From: a virus
Lineage: Duplodnaviria; Heunggongvirae; Uroviricota; Caudoviricetes
Length of the DNA: 37,462 nt
IMG/VR virus record: IMGVR_UViG_2778261530_000007
Reading direction: 5' to 3' (one strand)
The first letter of the stretch is position 1, and every line of letters begins with the position of its first letter. The notes beneath the pieces were generated by a model. That model was not told the origin of the DNA. It ran no database searches and saw only the letters and a list, made by a program, of their open reading frames with translations. The position numbers and the translations under genes are program-made. Positions 3,419 to 12,628 of this stretch are shown here, one piece after another.

Positions 3419-3661
3419 ATGGGCAAAGAATATAAAACTCTCATTAACAAAGCACTTGAGCGTTTTTATTTTCGCTTAAGTGCATCAGGCGCTCATGCTG
3501 AACGCGCAGCCCGTGACTCATTGACCAGGGCAATCCGGAGTCTGTATGACGTGGCTTTTTACGCTGATGATCTGGATGCACTTAACGAACTTTCCGAACT
3601 CGTCTGCGCCGCAGAATGCGGAGAACATATTGAACCGTATAAGCTGGGGAATATCGCATGA
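3419..3661 (+). CDS. Hypothetical early protein (80 aa)
   Basis: ORF in operon context. Confidence 0.55.
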   Translation: MGKEYKTLINKALERFYFRLSASGAHAERAARDSLTRAIRSLYDVAFYADDLDALNELSELVCAAECGEHIEPYKLGNIA

Positions 3662-3771
3662 GTATATTTATGTCATGGATTGTTCTGATTATTTCGGTGG
3701 CCTGCGCCATTGGGATTATGCGAATTATTCATTCAGTGAAAAAGATTGAACGTTTTTTCTCTGACGAATAA
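3658..3771 (+). CDS. Small hydrophobic protein (37 aa, MSIFMSWIVLIISVACAIGIMRIIHSVKKIERFFSDE), single predicted TM helix
   Basis: Hand-translated; ATGA overlap with the upstream stop; below the ORF-track length cut-off. Confidence 0.35.
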   Translation: MSIFMSWIVLIISVACAIGIMRIIHSVKKIERFFSDE

Positions 3772-3864
3772 CAGCACAAACAAAACACCAGATTAAACAA
3801 GAAAACGTGAAAACCATCCGCATTAGCGGAGGTATTCGCACACGTAAATAACGGAGATACAAAA

Positions 3865-4275
3865 ATGAACGCAAAAGAAAAAGGCATTGTAACTGCGCTA
3901 AAAAATATATCAGAGACCGCAAACAGAGCCATTCAGGATGCAACAAATGCAGGAATGATTGGGCCTGCCACCACGGCCATGATGATAACAAGAGTAACCG
4001 CCGAAGCAGCCGAAATCATCGAAAAACAGGATGCTGAACTAACGGTTCTCAAAACACAACCAACCACCAGACTGAATTTATCTGACATTGGACACCTTAT
4101 TCATATTATTGGCTCGGAGCTACAGCAATACATCATTATCGCCGAATTGCAGGACAAATACCTGATTACCCCTTACCCCGTAAGAGAGTCAGAAGTTCTG
4201 ACAAATCTCCGCCTGATAGAACGCACTCAGGCCGCATTCATTGATGGCACGCAACGTGCCGTATTTAACGCATAG
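3865..4275 (+). CDS. Hypothetical early protein (136 aa)
   Basis: ORF in operon context. Confidence 0.55.
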   Translation: MNAKEKGIVTALKNISETANRAIQDATNAGMIGPATTAMMITRVTAEAAEIIEKQDAELTVLKTQPTTRLNLSDIGHLIHIIGSELQQYIIIAELQDKYLITPYPVRESEVLTNLRLIERTQAAFIDGTQRAVFNA

Positions 4276-4744: not shown

Positions 4745-5040
4745 GCACCATCAACCACCAGGAACTACGCGAACTGGCGACTGACCTGCAACGAATGGCA
4801 ACGCATCAAAAATTACTGGCGTTTCGCGCAATGCTCTCGCCATCTGCCGTGTTGGCACTACTGGATGAACTGGAGCACGCCAGAACCACAGCGCCAGCCA
4901 TTCGCCTGACGCTCCATCATGAAATCGCTGATTTCTGTGCACCACTGGGTTCACCTGGCGAACCGGAAACACCGGAAACAATGCAGCGAGAGCTGCTGCA
5001 ACGCATCGACAAGGTTTTTGATTTTTTCCTTAACCAGTAA
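4741..5040 (+). CDS. Hypothetical early protein (99 aa)
   Basis: ORF, translationally coupled to the upstream gene. Confidence 0.55.
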   Translation: MSTINHQELRELATDLQRMATHQKLLAFRAMLSPSAVLALLDELEHARTTAPAIRLTLHHEIADFCAPLGSPGEPETPETMQRELLQRIDKVFDFFLNQ

Positions 5041-5051
5041 GGGATCGCAGC

Positions 5052-5255
5052 ATGAACAAAAAGACCTGGTTTCGCGCATACATGTGGGCGCTGGTATGCG
5101 TCCTCGTTTCTCTCATTCTGTATGCAGGACTACTCCCCCGAATGATTTCATCAGACAGCTCCTTCCTGGTATTGCTGGGCATTTTCATTGCCATGCTGTA
5201 CCCGGCAGGCGTTGTTCGCCTTTTCAGTAAGTACATCAAGGAAATCAAACAATGA
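5052..5255 (+). CDS. Small membrane protein with two predicted TM helices (67 aa); possible partner of the downstream SPFH protein
   Basis: Two hydrophobic stretches (WALVCVLVSLILYAGLL and FLVLLGIFIAMLYPAGVV); stop overlaps the SPFH gene start (ATGA). Confidence 0.55.
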   Translation: MNKKTWFRAYMWALVCVLVSLILYAGLLPRMISSDSSFLVLLGIFIAMLYPAGVVRLFSKYIKEIKQ

Positions 5256-6082
5256 AGAAATTCAAACTCTTTCAGATTATCCCTCTTTTTGCCGCCATCC
5301 TGCTGGTTGGTTGCGATCGTGTTGAGCCAGGTAATGTGGGCATCAAAGTCAACAAACTGGGCGACGATAAAGGCGTCGGTGAAGTGGTTGGTGTTGGCCG
5401 CTACTGGACTGGCTGGAATACCGAGGTTTACATCTTCCCGACCTTCAAACAAATGAAGACCTACGATGAGCCGTTCAGCTTCCAGATGAGTGACGGCACA
5501 ACCATCGGCTATCACATCGGTGTGGCCTACAAGGTTGATCCATCCAAAGTTACTACAGTGTTTCAGACCTACCGCAAAGGCGTGGATGACATTACCGACA
5601 CTGACCTGCGCCAGAAGATAGCCGACGCACTCAACCGACTGGCCAGCAAAATGACCACCGACAAATTTATCGACGGCGGGAAATCTGAACTACTGGATGC
5701 AGCTCTTAAAGACATTCAGGAGGAAATGACACCCATCGGTATTCAGGTAATGAGCCTCTCATATGTGGGTAAGCCGGAGTACCCGTCAACCGTTATCGAC
5801 AGCATTAATGCCAAAGTCACGGCAAACCAGAAAACCCTGCAACGCGAACAGGAAGTCAAGCAACGTGAAGCAGAAGCCAACATGTTGCGCGCAGAAGCTG
5901 CCGGACAGGCTGATGCGATTCGCACAAAAGCCCAGGCTGAAGCCGACGCTATTCGTTTACGCGGTGAAGCTCTGCGCCAGAATCCCGGCGTTATGGAGCT
6001 GGAAGCAATCAACAAATGGAACGGCACGCTGCCGCAATACATGACCAGCAATACCGCTGTTCCGTTTGTTCCGGTGAAGTAA
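5252..6082 (+). CDS. SPFH/band-7 (prohibitin/flotillin-like) domain lipoprotein
   Basis: Lipobox signal peptide ending LLVGC; SPFH-like core followed by an Ala/Glu/Gln-rich coiled-coil (EQEVKQREAEANMLRAEAAGQADAIRTKAQAEADAIRLRGEA). Confidence 0.8.
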   Translation: MKKFKLFQIIPLFAAILLVGCDRVEPGNVGIKVNKLGDDKGVGEVVGVGRYWTGWNTEVYIFPTFKQMKTYDEPFSFQMSDGTTIGYHIGVAYKVDPSKVTTVFQTYRKGVDDITDTDLRQKIADALNRLASKMTTDKFIDGGKSELLDAALKDIQEEMTPIGIQVMSLSYVGKPEYPSTVIDSINAKVTANQKTLQREQEVKQREAEANMLRAEAAGQADAIRTKAQAEADAIRLRGEALRQNPGVMELEAINKWNGTLPQYMTSNTAVPFVPVK

Positions 6083-6088
6083 TTAAAC

Positions 6089-6113
6089 CCGGCCAGTGAA
6101 AATCACTGGCCGG
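6089..6113 (+). terminator. Strong stem-loop (11-bp stem CCGGCCAGTGA / TCACTGGCCGG) just after the SPFH gene
   Basis: Perfect inverted repeat read from the sequence; a T-run follows about 10 nt downstream. Confidence 0.5.
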
Positions 6114-6250
6114 AGCAGTATCAGGATTTTTTAGTATGCCGTTCTCACAAAAAAACCGCTTGCCATGCCGCAATCAGTCAGGTTACATTTCCGCTGCACC
6201 TCATAAAACGGGTGCCGGGATTGGAACCCCGCTGACAACCAAAGCGCACA

Positions 6251-6270
6251 ACCGCGCCAGCGGTTTTTTT
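6251..6270 (+). terminator. Rho-independent terminator (ACCGCGCCAGCGGT followed by T7)
   Basis: GC stem followed directly by TTTTTTT. Confidence 0.55.
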
Positions 6271-6449
6271 GTGCGTACCGTATCGCCACGTCGTTTTCGC
6301 ACACGAATTATGGTGGGGCGTATGGGGCCGACTTCGGTCGGGCCGGGTTCTTTGGTTGCCGGTAGTTCCAACCCTGTACGTCTCACCACCCCGAGCTTGG
6401 AACCTCTGGATGGTGAGTTTTCAAAACTTACAACCAAAGAGGCCACACC

Positions 6450-6680
6450 ATGGCAAACCGCAAACAACAGCGCACATACGCTGCGCGTCGTCACATCCAG
6501 ACTGAAATCAACCGCAGACTTTTCCGCGCATTCCGCGTCGCGCAAATCATGCACATCAATATGCTGCATGAGCGCAGCCACGCACTATCAAACATTTATT
6601 CCGCCTCTGTTTTCAGCTATCTGGCAGATGATCTGCGCGAGCTTCAGCAGCTCATCCAGCAGCAAAACAAACTCCATTAA
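6450..6680 (+). CDS. Hypothetical basic protein (76 aa)
   Basis: ORF with AAGAGG RBS about 8 nt upstream of ATG. Confidence 0.5.
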   Translation: MANRKQQRTYAARRHIQTEINRRLFRAFRVAQIMHINMLHERSHALSNIYSASVFSYLADDLRELQQLIQQQNKLH

Positions 6681-7124: not shown

Positions 7125-9947
7125 ATGACGGCAGAGTACATCAGGGACTGGCAACAACCGCGCCACGCAGTGGGGCGTGAAGGAACGGGGATCCCCGCTC
7201 CTGAATCCGCGCTTTCCTCCTGGCTGGATGCCTACCGGGCAGAGAACGAGCGCCGCCAGGAAATGGCTGATGCGGCGTTCTCCGCCACGCCGCTGGGCAA
7301 CCTGATTAATAAAAACCTGGACGCACAGGAAAAACAGGACAAAACCATCACACTGGCAGGAGACGCCAGAAAACAGGCACGCGGCGCGGTGGATGAAGCC
7401 ATGGCCTCGCTGCGCCTGCTGCCGTCCTATCTGCGCGATCCGCTTATTCGCCACCTCTCCTTCCTGCGCAAAAAACAGGAAGCCGATCGCCGGAAAGGCA
7501 AAAAGAGCTGGCAGGCGGAACGCTATGCACGCGGAACCCTGCGCAAAATATTCGAACGTCTGGATCGCACTGACGGACACTGGCTGACACCGGGTTATCG
7601 CTCCCTTGCCGGACGCGAACGCCTGGACGATTTGCTTTACCTGCCGCAGCTCAACAAACACCAGATACAGACGCTGGCCACCATGACGGCGGCGATGTTC
7701 AGCAGCACCTTCGAAAAACTCTGCGATGGCTTTGGCGCGACCGATGGCGAACTGACCATGGATGTAACGCTGAAGGCGTATCAGATGCTGGCCCGCATGG
7801 CGTTACACCTGCACATCATGCCTCCACATTATGACGCACTGACAACAGATAAAGACCGGAGGAACGAACCGGACACGGAGCTGCTGCCGGGCGCAATCCT
7901 TCGCCTGACCTGTGCGGAATGGTGGAAACGCAAACTGTGGCTGTTACGTTGCGAGTGGAGAGAAGAACAACTCCGCGCCGCCTGTCTGGTTTCCAGAAAA
8001 ACATCACCCTATCTGAGCCAGGACGCGTTAAGCGAGTTTCGCGCACAGCGCGAGAAAACACGCGATTTCCTGAAAAGTTTCATGCTGGAAAACGAAGACG
8101 GGTTCACGATTGATCTCGAGACAGTGTATTACGCGGGAGTAAGTAACCCGGTTCACCGTAAGGCAGAAATGATGGCCACCATGAAGGGGCTGGAACTTCT
8201 GGCCGAAGCCCGTGGCGACAAAGCGGTGTTTCTGACTGTCACCTGCCCGTCAAAATACCACGCCACAACAGAGAACGGTCATCCGAATCCCAGATGGAAC
8301 GGGGCCACCATGCGCGACTCCAGCGATTACCTGGTTAACACGTTTTTTGCAGCGGTCCGCAAGAAACTGAACCGCGATGGCCTGCGCTGGTATGGCATCC
8401 GCACGGTGGAGCCTCACCATGACGGCACCGTGCACTGGCATATGATGGTCTTTGCTCATCCGGAAGAAATCGACAGCATTGTGGCCATCACCCGCGATAT
8501 TGCCATTCAGGAAGACCGCCACGAGCTGGGCGATGACATAACTCCGCGTTTTAAGGCGGAGTACGTAGACGGCTCAAAAGGCACACCAACCAGCTATATC
8601 GCGACCTACATCGGAAAAAACCTGGACAGCCGCGCCGTGGATGGCATCGACCCGAAAACGGGCAAGCCACGCGTTGACCACGAAACCGGAAAATCAATGG
8701 CAGAGAGCGTGGAACGCGCCATCGGCTGGGCGCGCCTTCACCGGGTCCGCCAGTTCCAGTTCTTTGGTATCCCCTCCCGTCAGGTGTGGCGTGAACTGCG
8801 TCGCCTTGCCAGCCAGATGGCACGCAACCCGGAAGGCCCGCAACGGCTGAAGGATGACGCAATGGACTCGGTTCTTGCTGCCGCTGATGCCGGATGTTTT
8901 GCCACCTACATAGAGAAACAGGGCGGCGTACTTGTTCCACGCAAAGACTACCTGATTCGCACCGCCTACGACCTCGCAGATGAGCTGAACGATTACGGCG
9001 AACAGAGCGTACAGATTTACGGGATCTGGTCACCACTCATCGGGGAATCCTCCCGTGTGTGCACGCATCCGGATAACTGGAAGCTGGTAAGACGTAAACC
9101 AGAACCGGAAGACAACGCCCACGAAAATGGTTTTGACCTTCAGGGCGGCCCTGCCGCCCCTTGGACTCGTGGCAATAACTGTCCCCGTGTACAGGAAACG
9201 GACAACAACGGGACAGAACAGCCGGAAGAACGGCCAGCACCGTGGCCGCAGCTCCCTGACGGCGTTGAAGTGAACGAATGGATGCGCTCACTGAAACGGC
9301 ACGAACGCCGGGCGCTGATGCGTTCGCTTCGTGACAAACAGGCAAAAAACAGCAGTGATGAAATGCAGAGCTGGACACAGAGCCGCAAACAGCAGCGGCC
9401 TTTGCCTGATAACCACGAATTACTCGCTAAAGAATGGCGGGAGTCTGCTGAATCTCTCGGCCTGCATATCGGTGAACAACAGATGCAGCACCTGTTACGG
9501 GGCGGCAGTCTGTACGTTGACGGCAGCATCATTGCACCGCAGGGATTTGAAATTGTACGCAAACCGGATACCCGCCCGGACAGCCGAATCACGCAGCTCT
9601 GGCAGCGCCTGAGCCGTAATCATGGCGTAAGCAGCACGGAGATCCGCCATAACCCGGTCGCCAGCTATCTGGCACAGCTGGGGGCATCAGACCCTGAAGC
9701 CGCCGCACGCCTGGCATCCACACTTCAGCAGGACCAGAACACCATGAAAACACCCGTTACCGTGCTTTCTGACATGCTGCGCGCCATCCGCGACGCAGAG
9801 CACGCACAGAGAATCAGTGAAACCACTGAACGCGCCAGCCGCAAAGCAGACCTGCTGCGGGGTGGCCTGACCAGTGGAAACAAAAAACAGACAGAAACGG
9901 GACTCACGAATCCCGTAAATGAGCAAAAAACGTGCCGCGATATATGA
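7125..9947 (+). CDS. A: Replication initiation endonuclease (P2 gpA family, rolling-circle nickase); 940 aa with a long C-terminal extension
   Basis: HUH-type metal motif (TVHWHMMVF) and paired-tyrosine active-site motif (YIATYIGKN); position after the early genes. Confidence 0.9.
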   Translation: MTAEYIRDWQQPRHAVGREGTGIPAPESALSSWLDAYRAENERRQEMADAAFSATPLGNLINKNLDAQEKQDKTITLAGDARKQARGAVDEAMASLRLLPSYLRDPLIRHLSFLRKKQEADRRKGKKSWQAERYARGTLRKIFERLDRTDGHWLTPGYRSLAGRERLDDLLYLPQLNKHQIQTLATMTAAMFSSTFEKLCDGFGATDGELTMDVTLKAYQMLARMALHLHIMPPHYDALTTDKDRRNEPDTELLPGAILRLTCAEWWKRKLWLLRCEWREEQLRAACLVSRKTSPYLSQDALSEFRAQREKTRDFLKSFMLENEDGFTIDLETVYYAGVSNPVHRKAEMMATMKGLELLAEARGDKAVFLTVTCPSKYHATTENGHPNPRWNGATMRDSSDYLVNTFFAAVRKKLNRDGLRWYGIRTVEPHHDGTVHWHMMVFAHPEEIDSIVAITRDIAIQEDRHELGDDITPRFKAEYVDGSKGTPTSYIATYIGKNLDSRAVDGIDPKTGKPRVDHETGKSMAESVERAIGWARLHRVRQFQFFGIPSRQVWRELRRLASQMARNPEGPQRLKDDAMDSVLAAADAGCFATYIEKQGGVLVPRKDYLIRTAYDLADELNDYGEQSVQIYGIWSPLIGESSRVCTHPDNWKLVRRKPEPEDNAHENGFDLQGGPAAPWTRGNNCPRVQETDNNGTEQPEERPAPWPQLPDGVEVNEWMRSLKRHERRALMRSLRDKQAKNSSDEMQSWTQSRKQQRPLPDNHELLAKEWRESAESLGLHIGEQQMQHLLRGGSLYVDGSIIAPQGFEIVRKPDTRPDSRITQLWQRLSRNHGVSSTEIRHNPVASYLAQLGASDPEAAARLASTLQQDQNTMKTPVTVLSDMLRAIRDAEHAQRISETTERASRKADLLRGGLTSGNKKQTETGLTNPVNEQKTCRDI

Positions 9948-10023: not shown

Positions 10024-10983
10024 ATGAAAATTTGTATCGACGACGGCTCCACCAACATCAAGCTGGCATGGACTGAGAACGGCGAACGCCGCAACGCCAT
10101 CAGCCCGAACAGCTTCAAGTCGGAATGGTCTGCGCCGTTCGGTGGCACGCAGCCCGCGAACTACATGCTTGATGGCGTGCGCTATGGTTTTGATCCGGTC
10201 AGCGATCGCTTTGTCCAGACGACCGACACGCAATACCAGTACAGCGATGTGAATGTCATTGCCATTCATCACGCGCTGGTCAAATCAGGCATCACGCCAC
10301 AGGAGGTGGATGTGGTTGTCACCCTGCCACTGAGCGAGTATTTCGACACAAACGCACAGCCGGACATAGCCAACATCAACCGCAAAAAAGCGAACGTTAT
10401 GCGCCCGGTGGAGTACCAGAACGGCGAAGCATTCACTATCCGTAACGTGCGGGTTATGCCTGAATCCATTCCGGCTGGCTTTAAGGCACTGGCTGACATG
10501 AGTCCGTTTGAATCCCTGCTGATTGTGGATTTGGGCGGAACCACGCTGGATGTGGCAAAGGTTCAGGGGCAACTGGCAGGTATCAGCCAGGTGTTTTGCG
10601 ATCCACACGTAGGCGTTTCTATGATGGCCGATGCCGTACTGTCGGTGATGGCCACTAACGGTATGCGCACCAGTCACCACATCGCCAATACCATTATCGA
10701 ACATCGCCATGATGAAGCCTGGCTGCGCCAGCACATCCACAATGACGCGCATTACGCCAGCCTGATGGCGGTTATTCGTGAAAAGGAAGAAACACTGAAA
10801 CAACGCGTGATCCGCGCACTGGCGGGTTTTTCGGGTTACGGGCGGGTGATGGTTGTCGGTGGCGGGGCGGAGATTGTGGCACCCGCTATCCGCGAAGCCT
10901 GCGGAGTTAATGCGACTTTCATCGCGGACGGGGTGCCACAGTTTGCTCTGGTTAATGGGCTGTACGCAATGGACAAGGAGTAA
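10024..10983 (+). CDS. parM: ParM/StbA-family actin-like segregation ATPase
   Basis: Strong similarity to plasmid R1 ParM as recalled (ICIDDGSTNIKLAW, ISPNSFK, YQYSDVNV, VMPESIPAG, DLGGTTLDV, GGGAEI, LVNGLY). Confidence 0.88.
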   Translation: MKICIDDGSTNIKLAWTENGERRNAISPNSFKSEWSAPFGGTQPANYMLDGVRYGFDPVSDRFVQTTDTQYQYSDVNVIAIHHALVKSGITPQEVDVVVTLPLSEYFDTNAQPDIANINRKKANVMRPVEYQNGEAFTIRNVRVMPESIPAGFKALADMSPFESLLIVDLGGTTLDVAKVQGQLAGISQVFCDPHVGVSMMADAVLSVMATNGMRTSHHIANTIIEHRHDEAWLRQHIHNDAHYASLMAVIREKEETLKQRVIRALAGFSGYGRVMVVGGGAEIVAPAIREACGVNATFIADGVPQFALVNGLYAMDKE

Positions 10984-10987
10984 ACCA

Positions 10988-11299
10988 ATGACGACACCAA
11001 CCAGACGGATAAGTTTCTATCTGAAGCCCGCCGCCGTCAAGAACGAAGGTGAAGCATGCGCCTGGCTGGACAGCCTTACACCAGAAGCGCGCAAAAGCGG
11101 CCAACGCGTGGCTTTTCTGGCCGGGCTGGCACTTCTGAAAATGAATCCGGCAGAGGCTTACCGACTGGCTGCATGGGCTGATGATGAAGCGTTATCAGTG
11201 ACACAAACCAGGACAGAACGCCCCGCGTCACAGCCAGTATCAACCGCACAGATAACCAGTCAGATGGCCGGAAATATCCGGGCGTTATTTCCCGAATAA
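10988..11299 (+). CDS. parR: ParR-like partition adaptor protein
   Basis: Immediately downstream of parM with AAGGAG RBS; motifs shared with R1 ParR as recalled (RRISFYLKP vs RRTIAFKLNP; FLAGLALL vs LTAGLALY; IRALFPE vs ILRSLFPKE). Confidence 0.7.
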   Translation: MTTPTRRISFYLKPAAVKNEGEACAWLDSLTPEARKSGQRVAFLAGLALLKMNPAEAYRLAAWADDEALSVTQTRTERPASQPVSTAQITSQMAGNIRALFPE

Positions 11300-11304
11300 C
11301 ACAA

Positions 11305-11328
11305 CATCAGGGCGCATCCGCCCTGATG
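11305..11328 (+). terminator. Perfect hairpin (10-bp stem CATCAGGGCG / CGCCCTGATG, 4-nt loop) between parR and the ZBD gene; terminator, attenuator or protein-binding palindrome
   Basis: Inverted repeat read from the sequence. Confidence 0.4.
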
Positions 11329-11362
11329 ACTTTAACCCGGGAACATAAACAAGGGGGACACA

Positions 11363-11698
11363 ATGCAACGCATTGACAGAGAAAAAGCGCAGCGACTGAT
11401 TGAGCGGATGGAAGCGCTGGCGAAAGAAGAAAATGTCAACATCCAAAAAATAGCTGAATGTGGCCAGATAGTTCTTCGTCGTGAAAAAGACCTCAAACAA
11501 CTGATGTCTGGCGAAACCAGCAAAACATGGACTTCAGGTGAGGAGACGATTTATTGCAGCTTCTGCAATAAATCCCAGTACGAAGTCACAAAGGTGATTG
11601 CCGGACCGTCTGTTTACATCTGCAATGAGTGCGTTGATTTGTGCAATGAAGTTATCAGGAGAGAAGTGACAGACCATGAAGAAAAAACGCATGAATGA
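11363..11698 (+). CDS. Small protein with a C-terminal ClpX-type C4 zinc-binding domain (ZBD) and a novel N-terminal helical region; lacks the AAA+ module
   Basis: C-terminus [39 protein letters not shown] closely matches the ClpX N-terminal zinc finger as recalled ([39 protein letters not shown]). Confidence 0.8.
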
Positions 11699-11864
11699 CG
11701 AATTTGACGGCTTTTAATTTTATCGGGGCGCACTGTCGCCCTGCATGGAGAAAAACAATAAAAAAGATGAATAACTGCTCATGTCAGACGCGCTGCGGGC
11801 AAGTCTGGCACCCTGCCCTGTCTCCGCAAAGGCTGTTGTCTTAACACGACAGAGTATGCCAGCA

Positions 11865-12272
11865 TTAAATATAATCTTCTTCGTAGTCGCTGATTAATTC
11901 ATTGCCATAATCAGACAGCAATTTCAAAGCAAAGGTAACTTCCTCAAGGGTAGCTATCCCCATTGCTGAAAACACCGTTAATTTAACCAGCAGCAGGGAG
12001 TTTGAAAGTTCGGAAGAGTTCATCATTAAAAATATTGATGCAGCCTGAAAAGCTGTGCGTTTATTCCCATCATGAAAGGCATGAGCCTTGGCTATACCAA
12101 TCAAATACATAGCAGCCAGAGCATGAATATCATCAACCCCTTCATAGTAGTGTAGTGTCCTGACGCGATTTAAAGCACCTTCAAGTAGCCCGTCATTGGC
12201 ATTTCCGCTCTGGGGTAAAGTTTCAGCATGGATACGTTCTACTTGTTCTTTTGACAAAAACACTATGTCCAT
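11865..12272 (-). CDS. doc: Doc (death-on-curing) Fic-fold toxin
   Basis: Fic/Doc signature HAFHDGNKRTA; start overlaps the stop of the upstream antitoxin gene (TGATG). Confidence 0.85.
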   Translation of the reverse strand: MDIVFLSKEQVERIHAETLPQSGNANDGLLEGALNRVRTLHYYEGVDDIHALAAMYLIGIAKAHAFHDGNKRTAFQAASIFLMMNSSELSNSLLLVKLTVFSAMGIATLEEVTFALKLLSDYGNELISDYEEDYI

Positions 12273-12628
12273 CAGTTATCCTCAAGCTTTTTAATGATAT
12301 CCGCATGTTTTTCTCTTGTACGCTTCATTGCATCTTCAAAAGACAATCCTTTTTTTCTCTGTGCGACAAGAGCTGGATGACGTTTTTCCAGATCTCTCAC
12401 TGCATTTATTAAGAGTGGTTGCTTCATTTTGTTTATTTGATCCCGCAGTTTTTTGGTTTTGCCAAGGACAGCCCGTATTTCAGGACTAAGATCAGAACCA
12501 GCAAGAACAACATCCTTCCCTCCCTGCGCCGTGATAACGACACTGCCACCGGAAGAAAGGTAATCCAGAATTTCACTCAGGTTCTCACGAAATTCATCAT
12601 CAGTTACAGTTTTCATATTCATTTCCAT
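12272..12628 (-). CDS. phd: Putative Phd/YefM-type antitoxin with C-terminal extension, cognate to Doc
   Basis: Upstream of and translationally coupled to doc; N-terminal region resembles the Phd/YefM fold pattern (EFRENLSEILDYLSSGGSVVITAQGGKDVVL). Confidence 0.6.
   Translation of the reverse strand: MEMNMKTVTDDEFRENLSEILDYLSSGGSVVITAQGGKDVVLAGSDLSPEIRAVLGKTKKLRDQINKMKQPLLINAVRDLEKRHPALVAQRKKGLSFEDAMKRTREKHADIIKKLEDN

Follow-up and report, generated by a model that had tools for sequence, protein, structure and literature searches.

Few membrane scaffolds are as widespread as the SPFH proteins, which recent cryo-electron microscopy has shown to build cages. To our knowledge, all structurally solved members oligomerise into rings or domes, and we know of only one bacterial example, HflK/HflC, for which a client has been identified. 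FtsH-type proteases are the clients of both characterised cages with a periplasmic or equivalent orientation, HflK/C and the mitochondrial prohibitins. HflK/C also has a historical connection with phages through lambda CII. A different arrangement is found in the SPFH-NfeD operons (for example QmcA-YbbJ, YqiK-YqiJ and PH1511-PH1510, the last with an archaeal stomatin), where the SPFH gene is accompanied by an adjacent, co-transcribed gene for a small membrane protein, the two being sometimes fused. The subject of the present work is a pair of adjacent phage genes which recalls each of these systems. It occupies positions 5052-6113 of a 37,462-nucleotide sequence from a tailed virus (Caudoviricetes; IMG/VR record IMGVR_UViG_2778261530_000007; this whole stretch is called the window below) and consists of a gene for an SPFH lipoprotein preceded by a gene for a small membrane protein, referred to here as the partner.

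Papers from 2021 and 2026 describe the role of phage SPFH genes as unclear (PMC8540360, PMC13239085). Our full-text literature searches returned no functional study of phage SPFH lipoproteins, and a survey of jumbo phages makes no mention of them (PMC7824862). The prokaryotic prohibitins (SPFH4), as described by Hinderhofer et al., are uncharacterised proteins which presumably face the periplasm, lack an NfeD partner and seldom accompany HflK/C (PMC2636767). The pair is already present in published, annotated genomes: phage P88 gp11/gp12 and the N4 gp19/gp20 family correspond to it gene for gene and in order, their frames overlap or abut, and there is no difference in kind between them and the pair in the window. 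On the sequence comparisons presented here, the two genes are one conserved phage module, composed of PHROG 1130 (the partner) and PHROG 200 (the SPFH protein), whose members carry annotations as N4 gp19 and gp20 homologues. What appear to be undescribed in the papers searched are the conserved and often unannotated partner, its fusions to the SPFH protein, the predicted periplasmic topology and the strength of selection.

Like HflK/HflC, the phage protein combines an SPFH domain, a long helix and a C-terminal segment, which are matched over their full length by Foldseek, with an N-terminal anchor and a bulk predicted to be periplasmic. In contrast to HflK/HflC, which are two paralogues with one membrane helix per subunit, the phages have one SPFH gene, and its product is predicted to carry a lipid anchor and to be accompanied by a separate two-helix partner. 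The likeness to prohibitins lies in a match to the prohibitin-2 coiled coil, in the periplasm-equivalent orientation and in the absence of an NfeD partner, but identity in structural alignments is 14-16%, and the phage protein has a predicted lipid anchor and a small partner of its own. As in the SPFH-NfeD operons, stoichiometry is likely to be 1:1 and the partner helices would lie in the membrane under the SPFH ring. The phage partner, however, is without the NfeD OB fold and, whereas NfeD-type systems such as QmcA and YqiK face the cytoplasm, the phage pair is predicted to face the periplasm. By analogy, the pair probably works like an HflK/C or prohibitin cage in which the partner takes over the architectural role of NfeD.

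The SPFH lipoprotein and its small partner

A first-pass annotation of the window, made from its letters and open reading frames (ORFs) without database searches, had proposed an SPFH lipoprotein translationally coupled to a two-helix membrane protein of 67 amino acids, and all of these elements were recovered (Table 1). The SPFH protein matches the Pfam profile PF01145 (Band_7/SPFH) with E = 1.8e-30 (106.7 bits against a cut-off of 23.6) and the PHROG 200 'lipoprotein' profile with E = 8.5e-112. Foldseek searches with its AlphaFold model gave full-length matches to HflK/HflC, erlin, prohibitin and stomatin (260-300 aligned columns, E = 1e-11 to 8e-14; the best is HflK/HflC, 7vhq, with 8e-14 and probability 1.00). 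The best sequence matches in the PDB are the prohibitin-2 coiled coil, which includes the GEAL-x-x-NP motif, and HflK/HflC. Scores against the NCBIfam equivalog models of HflK and HflC, TIGR01933 and TIGR01932, are 24.3 and 23.5 bits, far below the respective cut-offs of 134.4 and 159.4.

The AlphaFold model (predicted local distance difference test, pLDDT, 72.7) has an N-terminal part rich in beta structure and an alpha/beta part, followed by one long helix and a poorly predicted C-terminus. The long helix (Ala 22%; Glu, Gln and Arg 11% each) is, in this model, the predicted equivalent of the coiled-coil wall of SPFH cages. Six residues towards the C-terminus (W256, G258, P261, P271, F272 and K276) are invariant in two SPFH alignments (A1 and A2), and by analogy with HflK/C and prohibitin structures this segment is a candidate for the cap-forming strand of an oligomer. 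Model confidence is low here, which is to be expected if the segment adopts its fold upon oligomerisation.

At its other end, the protein starts with the signal peptide MKKFKLFQIIPLFAAILLVG, followed by the lipobox Cys21 (codon 5312-5314), in accordance with the lipobox rule [LVI][ASTVI][GAS]C and with the lipoprotein call of the first-pass annotation. Cys21 is followed by Asp22, and an Asp at position +2 is an inner-membrane retention (Lol-avoidance) signal in E. coli. The lipobox Cys is kept in most relatives, and those without it have a single N-terminal hydrophobic anchor. Among the versions which lack it are the SPFH proteins of SSU5-like E. coli phage-plasmids (P0110, P0115 and P0118), where a Tyr replaces the Cys (…IGYDRVEPG…); these proteins would thus be held by an uncleaved signal helix and not by a lipid. 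The Yersinia, Kluyvera and Buttiauxella versions retain the Cys. P0115 alone is recorded on 175 contigs.

The partner gene ends within the start of the SPFH gene, the SPFH ATG (5252-5254) and the partner TGA (5253-5255) forming an ATGA overlap. Its product has two hydrophobic segments (residues ~8-28 and ~37-57) and is basic at both ends (MNKKTWFR at the N-terminus and RLFSKYIKEIKQ at the C-terminus). From the positive-inside rule, together with the fusion proteins described below, we infer an N-in/C-in topology with a short periplasmic loop. The loop carries the motif P-x-[LM]-[IV]-S-x-x-[SD] (LLPRMISSDSS in the window), which forms part of a longer pattern where the first helix ends, G-x-x-x-P-x-[LM]-[IV]-S-x-x-[SD]. 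In the partner alignment (A5), Ser33 is invariant and Pro29 and Gly43 are nearly so, and identity among partners across lineages is only 13-45%. The partner seems to need little beyond two hydrophobic helices and a short motif.

The partner matches the PHROG 1130 'membrane protein' profile with E = 1.3e-22, and 23 of 24 diverse versions of it match this profile (best E = 8.7e-31). As far as could be seen, PHROG 1130 is phage-specific. A word-based homologue search with the 67-residue protein returned close E. coli relatives only, and the wider family was detected by neighbourhood inspection and PHROG 1130. There were no Pfam matches to the window partner at E <= 0.01, and the 24 diverse partners gave scattered chance matches at E <= 1, with no Pfam family and no NfeD. 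The first-pass annotation had pointed to NfeD-like proteins, the usual small companions of cellular SPFH proteins; this idea had to be given up, as the partner is without the OB-fold domain, for which 67 residues leave no room beyond the two helices, and belongs to a separate family.

Two other readings of the small gene were rejected. It is not a chance ORF, because equivalent ORFs abut or overlap the SPFH start in independent lineages at 13-45% identity and are found in fusions. Nor is it likely to encode a holin, given its position and the absence of holin-family matches, of which there was a single weak one among the 24 partners. The sequence is suggestive of the N-in/C-in two-helix topology with a charged C-terminus seen in class II holins and pinholins, a topology which many small membrane proteins have.

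Table 1. Features of the two-gene cassette, with positions in the window
Feature	Position	Strand	Remarks
AAGGGA ribosome-binding site of the partner ORF	5039-5044	+	
ORF of the predicted two-helix inner-membrane protein (partner), 67 amino acids	5052-5255	+	PHROG 1130 family
ORF of the SPFH lipoprotein, 276 amino acids	5252-6082	+	
Lipoprotein signal peptide, residues 1-21	5252-5314	+	Lipobox L-V-G-C
SPFH/Band 7 domain, residues 23-209	5318-5878	+	Pfam PF01145
Long Ala/Glu/Gln/Arg-rich helix, residues 179-243 (65 residues)	5786-5980	+	AlphaFold secondary structure
Conserved C-terminal segment (…INKWNGTLPQYMTS…PFVPVK) and stop codon	5984-6082	+	
GC-rich hairpin, 11-bp stem, 3-nt AAA loop	6089-6113	+	7 bases after the SPFH stop

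Pairing, fusions and conservation across phages

The partner is conserved in 12 of the 15 lineages examined. In paired lineages, a two-helix ORF of 49-78 amino acids ends between -3 and +20 nt from the SPFH start. These lineages include P88-, phiP27-, P1- and SSU5/pMT1-like elements and loci from Pantoea, Yersinia, Kluyvera and Lelliottia, but also the N4-like phage Moo19, the crAss-like cr85_1, Burkholderia phiBt-TXDOH, a Cohaesibacter prophage and jumbo-phage contigs of ~300 kb. In the rV5-like phage GAP31 the partner is located one small gene upstream of the SPFH gene. The SPFH lipoprotein is found without this partner in three lineages, represented by Bruynoghevirus U47, Ounavirinae Pistou and the phiCbK-like Magneto. 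The phiP27 RefSeq entry (locus L002, 2762-2950), the P1-like records (L003, 2730-2966) and the jumbo-phage contigs (L109, 6801-7001) lack an annotation or gene call for the partner, and the pairing is therefore easily overlooked.

In Shigella flexneri SFBU1023 and E. coli ECMA0423 (L087 and L088, ~3450-3980) a sequence resembling an insertion sequence, identified as such from its minus-strand ORFs, replaces the partner and leaves the SPFH ORF intact; the two loci may represent natural partner knock-outs. The SPFH gene is a pseudogene in an endosymbiont.

Direct fusions of partner and SPFH protein account for about 20 of the 150 best representative clusters. In these proteins a two-helix domain with the partner motif is joined by a basic linker to a third hydrophobic segment, which closes with a lipobox and leads into the SPFH domain. 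The lipobox Cys is invariant in 19 fusions, which suggests that lipoprotein processing is retained. Taken together, the ATGA overlap, the conserved adjacency and the fusions indicate that the partner is functionally linked to the SPFH protein. A metagenomic protein of 344 amino acids (P0148) has a two-helix domain with a VVPTLISSS motif C-terminal to the SPFH domain; it represents a permuted fusion or else results from read-through into a partner gene located behind the SPFH gene.

SPFH homologues were detected by translated search in 410 of 50,697 phage records, most of them from virulent phages. The virulent carriers include N4-like Schitoviridae, rV5-like Vequintavirinae, FelixO1-like Ounavirinae, LUZ24-like Bruynogheviruses, phiCbK-like Caulobacter phages, a crAss-like phage, Lak megaphages, Myxococcus Mx1 and jumbo phages, and the temperate carriers include P2-like, P1-like, phiP27/Stx2, SSU5-like and Burkholderia phiE125-like phages. 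A homologue is present in 716 of 5,426 complete E. coli genomes (13%), about equally on chromosomes and plasmids, and the gene is frequent in pathogenic E. coli, including Stx-converting phages. An exhaustive profile-free search of 1.84 billion representative proteins gave 2,889 clusters at E <= 1e-3; the long metagenomic contigs inspected are phage-like and include jumbo phages of ~300 kb. A genome-contig scan with narrow back-translated patterns gave 11 loci and a viral-contig scan recovered relatives at >=93% identity only. Database names of relatives include 'prohibitin family protein'.

Phage P88 shows 94% DNA identity over the whole cassette and its flanks. In Shigella phage Moo19, gp30 and gp31 are annotated as 'similar to phage N4 gp19' and 'gp20', the annotation on which the N4 assignment rests, and are 30% and 64% identical, respectively, to the partner and the SPFH protein of the window. 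A 108-kb contig of Yersinia pestis NCTC5923 (L090), judged by its size probably a pMT1-type plasmid related to the SSU5-like phage-plasmids, encodes a 66-residue partner and an SPFH protein 77% identical to that of the window.

The two proteins differ strikingly in conservation. Between the window and phiP27, identity is 22% for the partner, 43% for the signal peptide and 96.5% for the mature SPFH protein (synonymous divergence, dS, 0.40; ratio of nonsynonymous to synonymous divergence, dN/dS, 0.051); between the window and the P1-like element, the corresponding values are 38%, 33% and 98% (dS 0.99, dN/dS 0.009). By these measures, purifying selection on the mature SPFH domain is extreme for an accessory phage gene, and its conservation is unlike the fast evolution typical of arms-race genes. 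Such constraint would be in keeping with dense packing in an oligomer, with contact to a conserved component of the host, or with the two combined.

In comparison with the phiP27/Stx2 and P1-like copies, similarity in DNA sets in abruptly at the codon after the lipobox, at ~5309, and upstream of this point the signal peptide and partner cannot be aligned in DNA. The boundary is either a recombination joint at the conserved GCDRVEPGNVG or the result of very unequal constraint, which could explain it alone because dS is close to 1.

Cassette boundaries and prophage setting

Among P2-like prophages, the window belongs to the P88 type (genus Xuanwuvirus). It starts with an integrase fragment, an HTH (helix-turn-helix) repressor, a Cox-like gene and small early genes, followed by replication gene A (7125-9947), and the late genes start at ~13.1 kb. 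As the first-pass annotation had stated, the pair lies inside the early operon and does not belong to the canonical P2 early region: in phage P2 there are no comparable genes between cox and A. It is located between an Ead/Ea22-like gene (stop codon TAA at 5038-5040) and gpA.

The close relatives Citrobacter phage Shae_phiSM and Escherichia phage PhiR44_2 carry other genes in this slot, which allowed the edges of the cassette to be placed. On the left, identity with both phages stops a few bases past the Ead-like stop codon. On the right, alignment with Shae_phiSM places the edge at ~6143; because identity with this pair-less relative resumes only there, the hairpin which follows the SPFH gene and the T-run behind it (6127-6132, 13 nt past the hairpin) travel with the two genes. 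The GC content of the cassette carries no foreign signature. P1 and the Bruynogheviruses, too, vary in whether they carry the cassette. A tRNA-like sequence and then the ban (dnaB) helicase gene come after the SPFH gene of the P1-like element (L003, 3800-3880), and the pair fills a stretch which in reference P1 begins with a dicF-like region, two tRNA genes and plp/upl.

The strong hairpin noted in the first-pass annotation is borne out by the fold energy of 6076-6140 (-22.8 kcal/mol, z = -4.2), which was matched by none of 200 shuffles. It was also flagged by a separate scan. None of 107 loci contained its exact sequence, owing to a G-to-A change in the window which lengthens the stem; in a relaxed comparison the hairpin is conserved, relatives with the pair retaining 8-9 bp. 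In phiP27, Pantoea and Lelliottia an own GC hairpin directly follows the SPFH stop codon. The hairpin is probably a terminator-like cassette end, acting as a partial terminator or mRNA-stabilising element. The P2 early operon has an internal putative terminator, and a partial terminator at this position is therefore not unusual.

Downstream of the cassette, Rfam identifies isrK, an Hfq-binding small RNA (6196-6270, 69.5 bits), and C4 antisense RNA (6306-6393, 84.4 bits), and these are followed by a gene for a 76-residue 'derepression' family protein (6450-6680; PF25738, E = 3e-7). The arrangement resembles an antirepressor module under RNA control, placed between the early genes and gpA. The region is common to P88 and Shae_phiSM. 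The slot after gpA (10024-12628), which contains tin and old in P2, is occupied by other genes in the window: a ParM-like actin (10024-10983; StbA_N, E = 3.6e-82), a ClpX-type zinc-finger protein (11363-11698) and, on the minus strand, a Doc/Fic toxin (11865-12272) with its Phd antitoxin (12272-12628). At 40.6%, phd-doc is lower in GC than the window as a whole (52.6%). The lysis cassette (holin, endolysin and spanin) is found at 19.4-20.8 kb, 14 kb from the pair.

Predicted orientation and possible roles

The signal peptide and lipobox of the split forms would place the mature SPFH domain in the periplasm, tethered by its lipid to the outer face of the inner membrane. The fusions agree with this orientation: their SPFH domain should be outside because the basic N-terminus is inside and the third hydrophobic segment crosses outward. 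Helix-anchored and fused relatives are expected in the inner membrane because their anchor consists of membrane helices. By analogy with the solved members of the family, we infer that the protein forms a ring or dome.

As to timing, the pair of the window is part of the repressor-controlled early (Pe) operon, and that of the P1-like element is preceded by a perfect C1 operator, where the ban promoter is situated. The SPFH genes of virulent phages and of the Cohaesibacter prophage are surrounded by early, middle or replication genes; the neighbours include the RNA polymerase II genes in Moo19 and DNA polymerase in Pistou and the Cohaesibacter prophage.

The reading we prefer, and consider reasonably probable, is that of an SPFH ring or cage which sits on the inner membrane, faces the periplasm and acts early in lytic growth. 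The module would be transcribed with the early and replication genes and be active in lytic growth of virulent and temperate phages alike; the partner would supply membrane-spanning helices, 1:1, under the rim of the ring, and the ring would fence off a patch of inner membrane with a resident host protein. More tentatively, and by analogy with the characterised cages, the client may be a conserved host inner-membrane machine, with FtsH as the first candidate. It is equally a matter of conjecture, possible but on the doubtful side, whether the pair is a general host-takeover device, a prohibitin-like cage with a two-helix picket which encloses FtsH or a transport or DNA-entry complex early in infection. 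If so, the cage would reprogramme membrane proteolysis or shut the membrane to rivals, and a single takeover device would be common to N4-like, rV5-like, jumbo and crAss-like phages and to P1-, P2- and lambda-like phages.

Several points weigh against the lytic-cycle cage. Localisation, oligomerisation and client are all predictions, and the timing of expression was deduced solely from gene position; promoter scans upstream of the pair in the window, phiP27 and P1-like loci gave nothing better than shuffled sequences. The models of the window SPFH protein are monomers with the poorly predicted C-terminus mentioned above. An Arg at +3 may weaken the Asp+2 signal in the enterobacterial versions, so that sorting to the outer membrane is possible. 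The similarity to HflK/HflC is weak (~24 bits) and lends no support to the retention of an FtsH-contacting surface. Finally, the partner cannot be obligatory for function because three lineages do without it, and an extensive specific interface between the two proteins is disfavoured because near-identical SPFH domains pair with partners only 22-38% identical.

Among the alternatives, a role as a generic envelope stabiliser or lysis-timing aid fares best, although we judge it rather unlikely. Here the scaffold would have no specific client; it would make the inner membrane of infected cells stiffer or divide it into compartments and so prolong proton-motive force and biosynthesis. It might buffer the stress caused by DNA entry, accumulating holin or membrane-directed abortive-infection effectors of the host, and the outcome would be later lysis and a larger burst. 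N4 itself shows delayed lysis and very large bursts. The spread of the pair over very different phages and hosts, including phages of Bacteroidota, favours a target as universal as the membrane, and its strong conservation is compatible with a tightly packed homo-oligomer. Two papers present bacterial SPFH proteins as general microdomain scaffolds linked to membrane-stress tolerance (PMC8581546, PMC10434171). The pair is, however, remote from the lysis cassette, a link with the holin is without support, and the proposal is unspecific and hard to separate from a client cage.

Superinfection exclusion, one of the roles suggested in the first-pass annotation, appears unlikely. A periplasmic SPFH assembly and its partner, made early and perhaps weakly in lysogens as well, would block entry of a second genome at the inner membrane, and could do so by covering or immobilising host proteins used by incoming phages or by stopping ejected tape-measure or pilot proteins. 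The pair is indeed an accessory cassette, present or absent among close relatives, in the early region and with envelope-located products; in Moo19 it adjoins a gene whose annotation points to similarity with P22 gp17, a superinfection-exclusion gene, and the PHROG category of the partner family is 'moron, auxiliary metabolic gene and host takeover'. In these respects it resembles T4 Imm and Sp, T5 Llp, P22 SieA and HK97 gp15, which are early, accessory and patchily distributed small inner-membrane proteins and/or lipoproteins. It differs from them in conservation pattern and shows no sequence or profile similarity to them, and we know of no SPFH fold in any of these five proteins. Neither Pfam, PHROG nor PADLOC reveals similarity to known exclusion or defence families. 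Membership of a known defence system was rejected, since in PADLOC-DB v2 the SPFH protein had no match and the partner a single sub-threshold one (E = 0.0078, with no stretch passing alone). Extreme purifying selection, with near-identical proteins in unrelated phages, would fit exclusion only if the target were a host protein, and a cage covers no more than patches of membrane. Protection of the lysogen is doubtful because the pair belongs to a repressor-controlled operon and has no recognisable promoter of its own.

Control of lysogeny through FtsH, also raised in the first-pass annotation, is very improbable. The protein would mimic or antagonise HflK/C and alter the degradation of a CII-like factor by FtsH, and it does share orientation and fold class with HflK/C and stand in the early operon of a temperate phage, near isrK, C4 RNA and the derepression protein. 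Most of the 410 carriers, however, are strictly virulent and have no lysogeny decision to make, a point also raised in PMC8540360; proteins 96-98% identical occur in P2-like, P1-like and lambdoid phages with unrelated immunity circuits, and the window contains no identified CII-like substrate.

Scarcely credible, lastly, is a surface or vesicle lipoprotein of lysogenic conversion which benefits the bacterial host, for example through virulence or immune modulation, as was claimed for PM0222 of Pasteurella multocida: the gene is frequent in pathogenic E. coli, as noted above, and deletion of PM0222, a prophage-borne, HflK/C-like protein of 25-35 kDa detected both in cultures of the lysogen and in outer-membrane vesicles, made the bacterium less virulent to mice (PMC9872710), but PM0222 may not belong to the present family, TLR2 is stimulated by any lipoprotein, Asp+2 and the helix-anchored or fused relatives indicate the inner membrane and not the surface, and the gene in virulent phages is left unexplained.

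The frequent carriage of the pair suggests that phages often need such a cage. Together with the fusions and the predicted periplasmic orientation, the partner turns a vague annotation into a testable system in N4, P1 variants and P88. Knowing the client would reveal which demands virulent phages make on the inner membrane at the start of infection, and might bring to light a natural inhibitor or re-director of FtsH.

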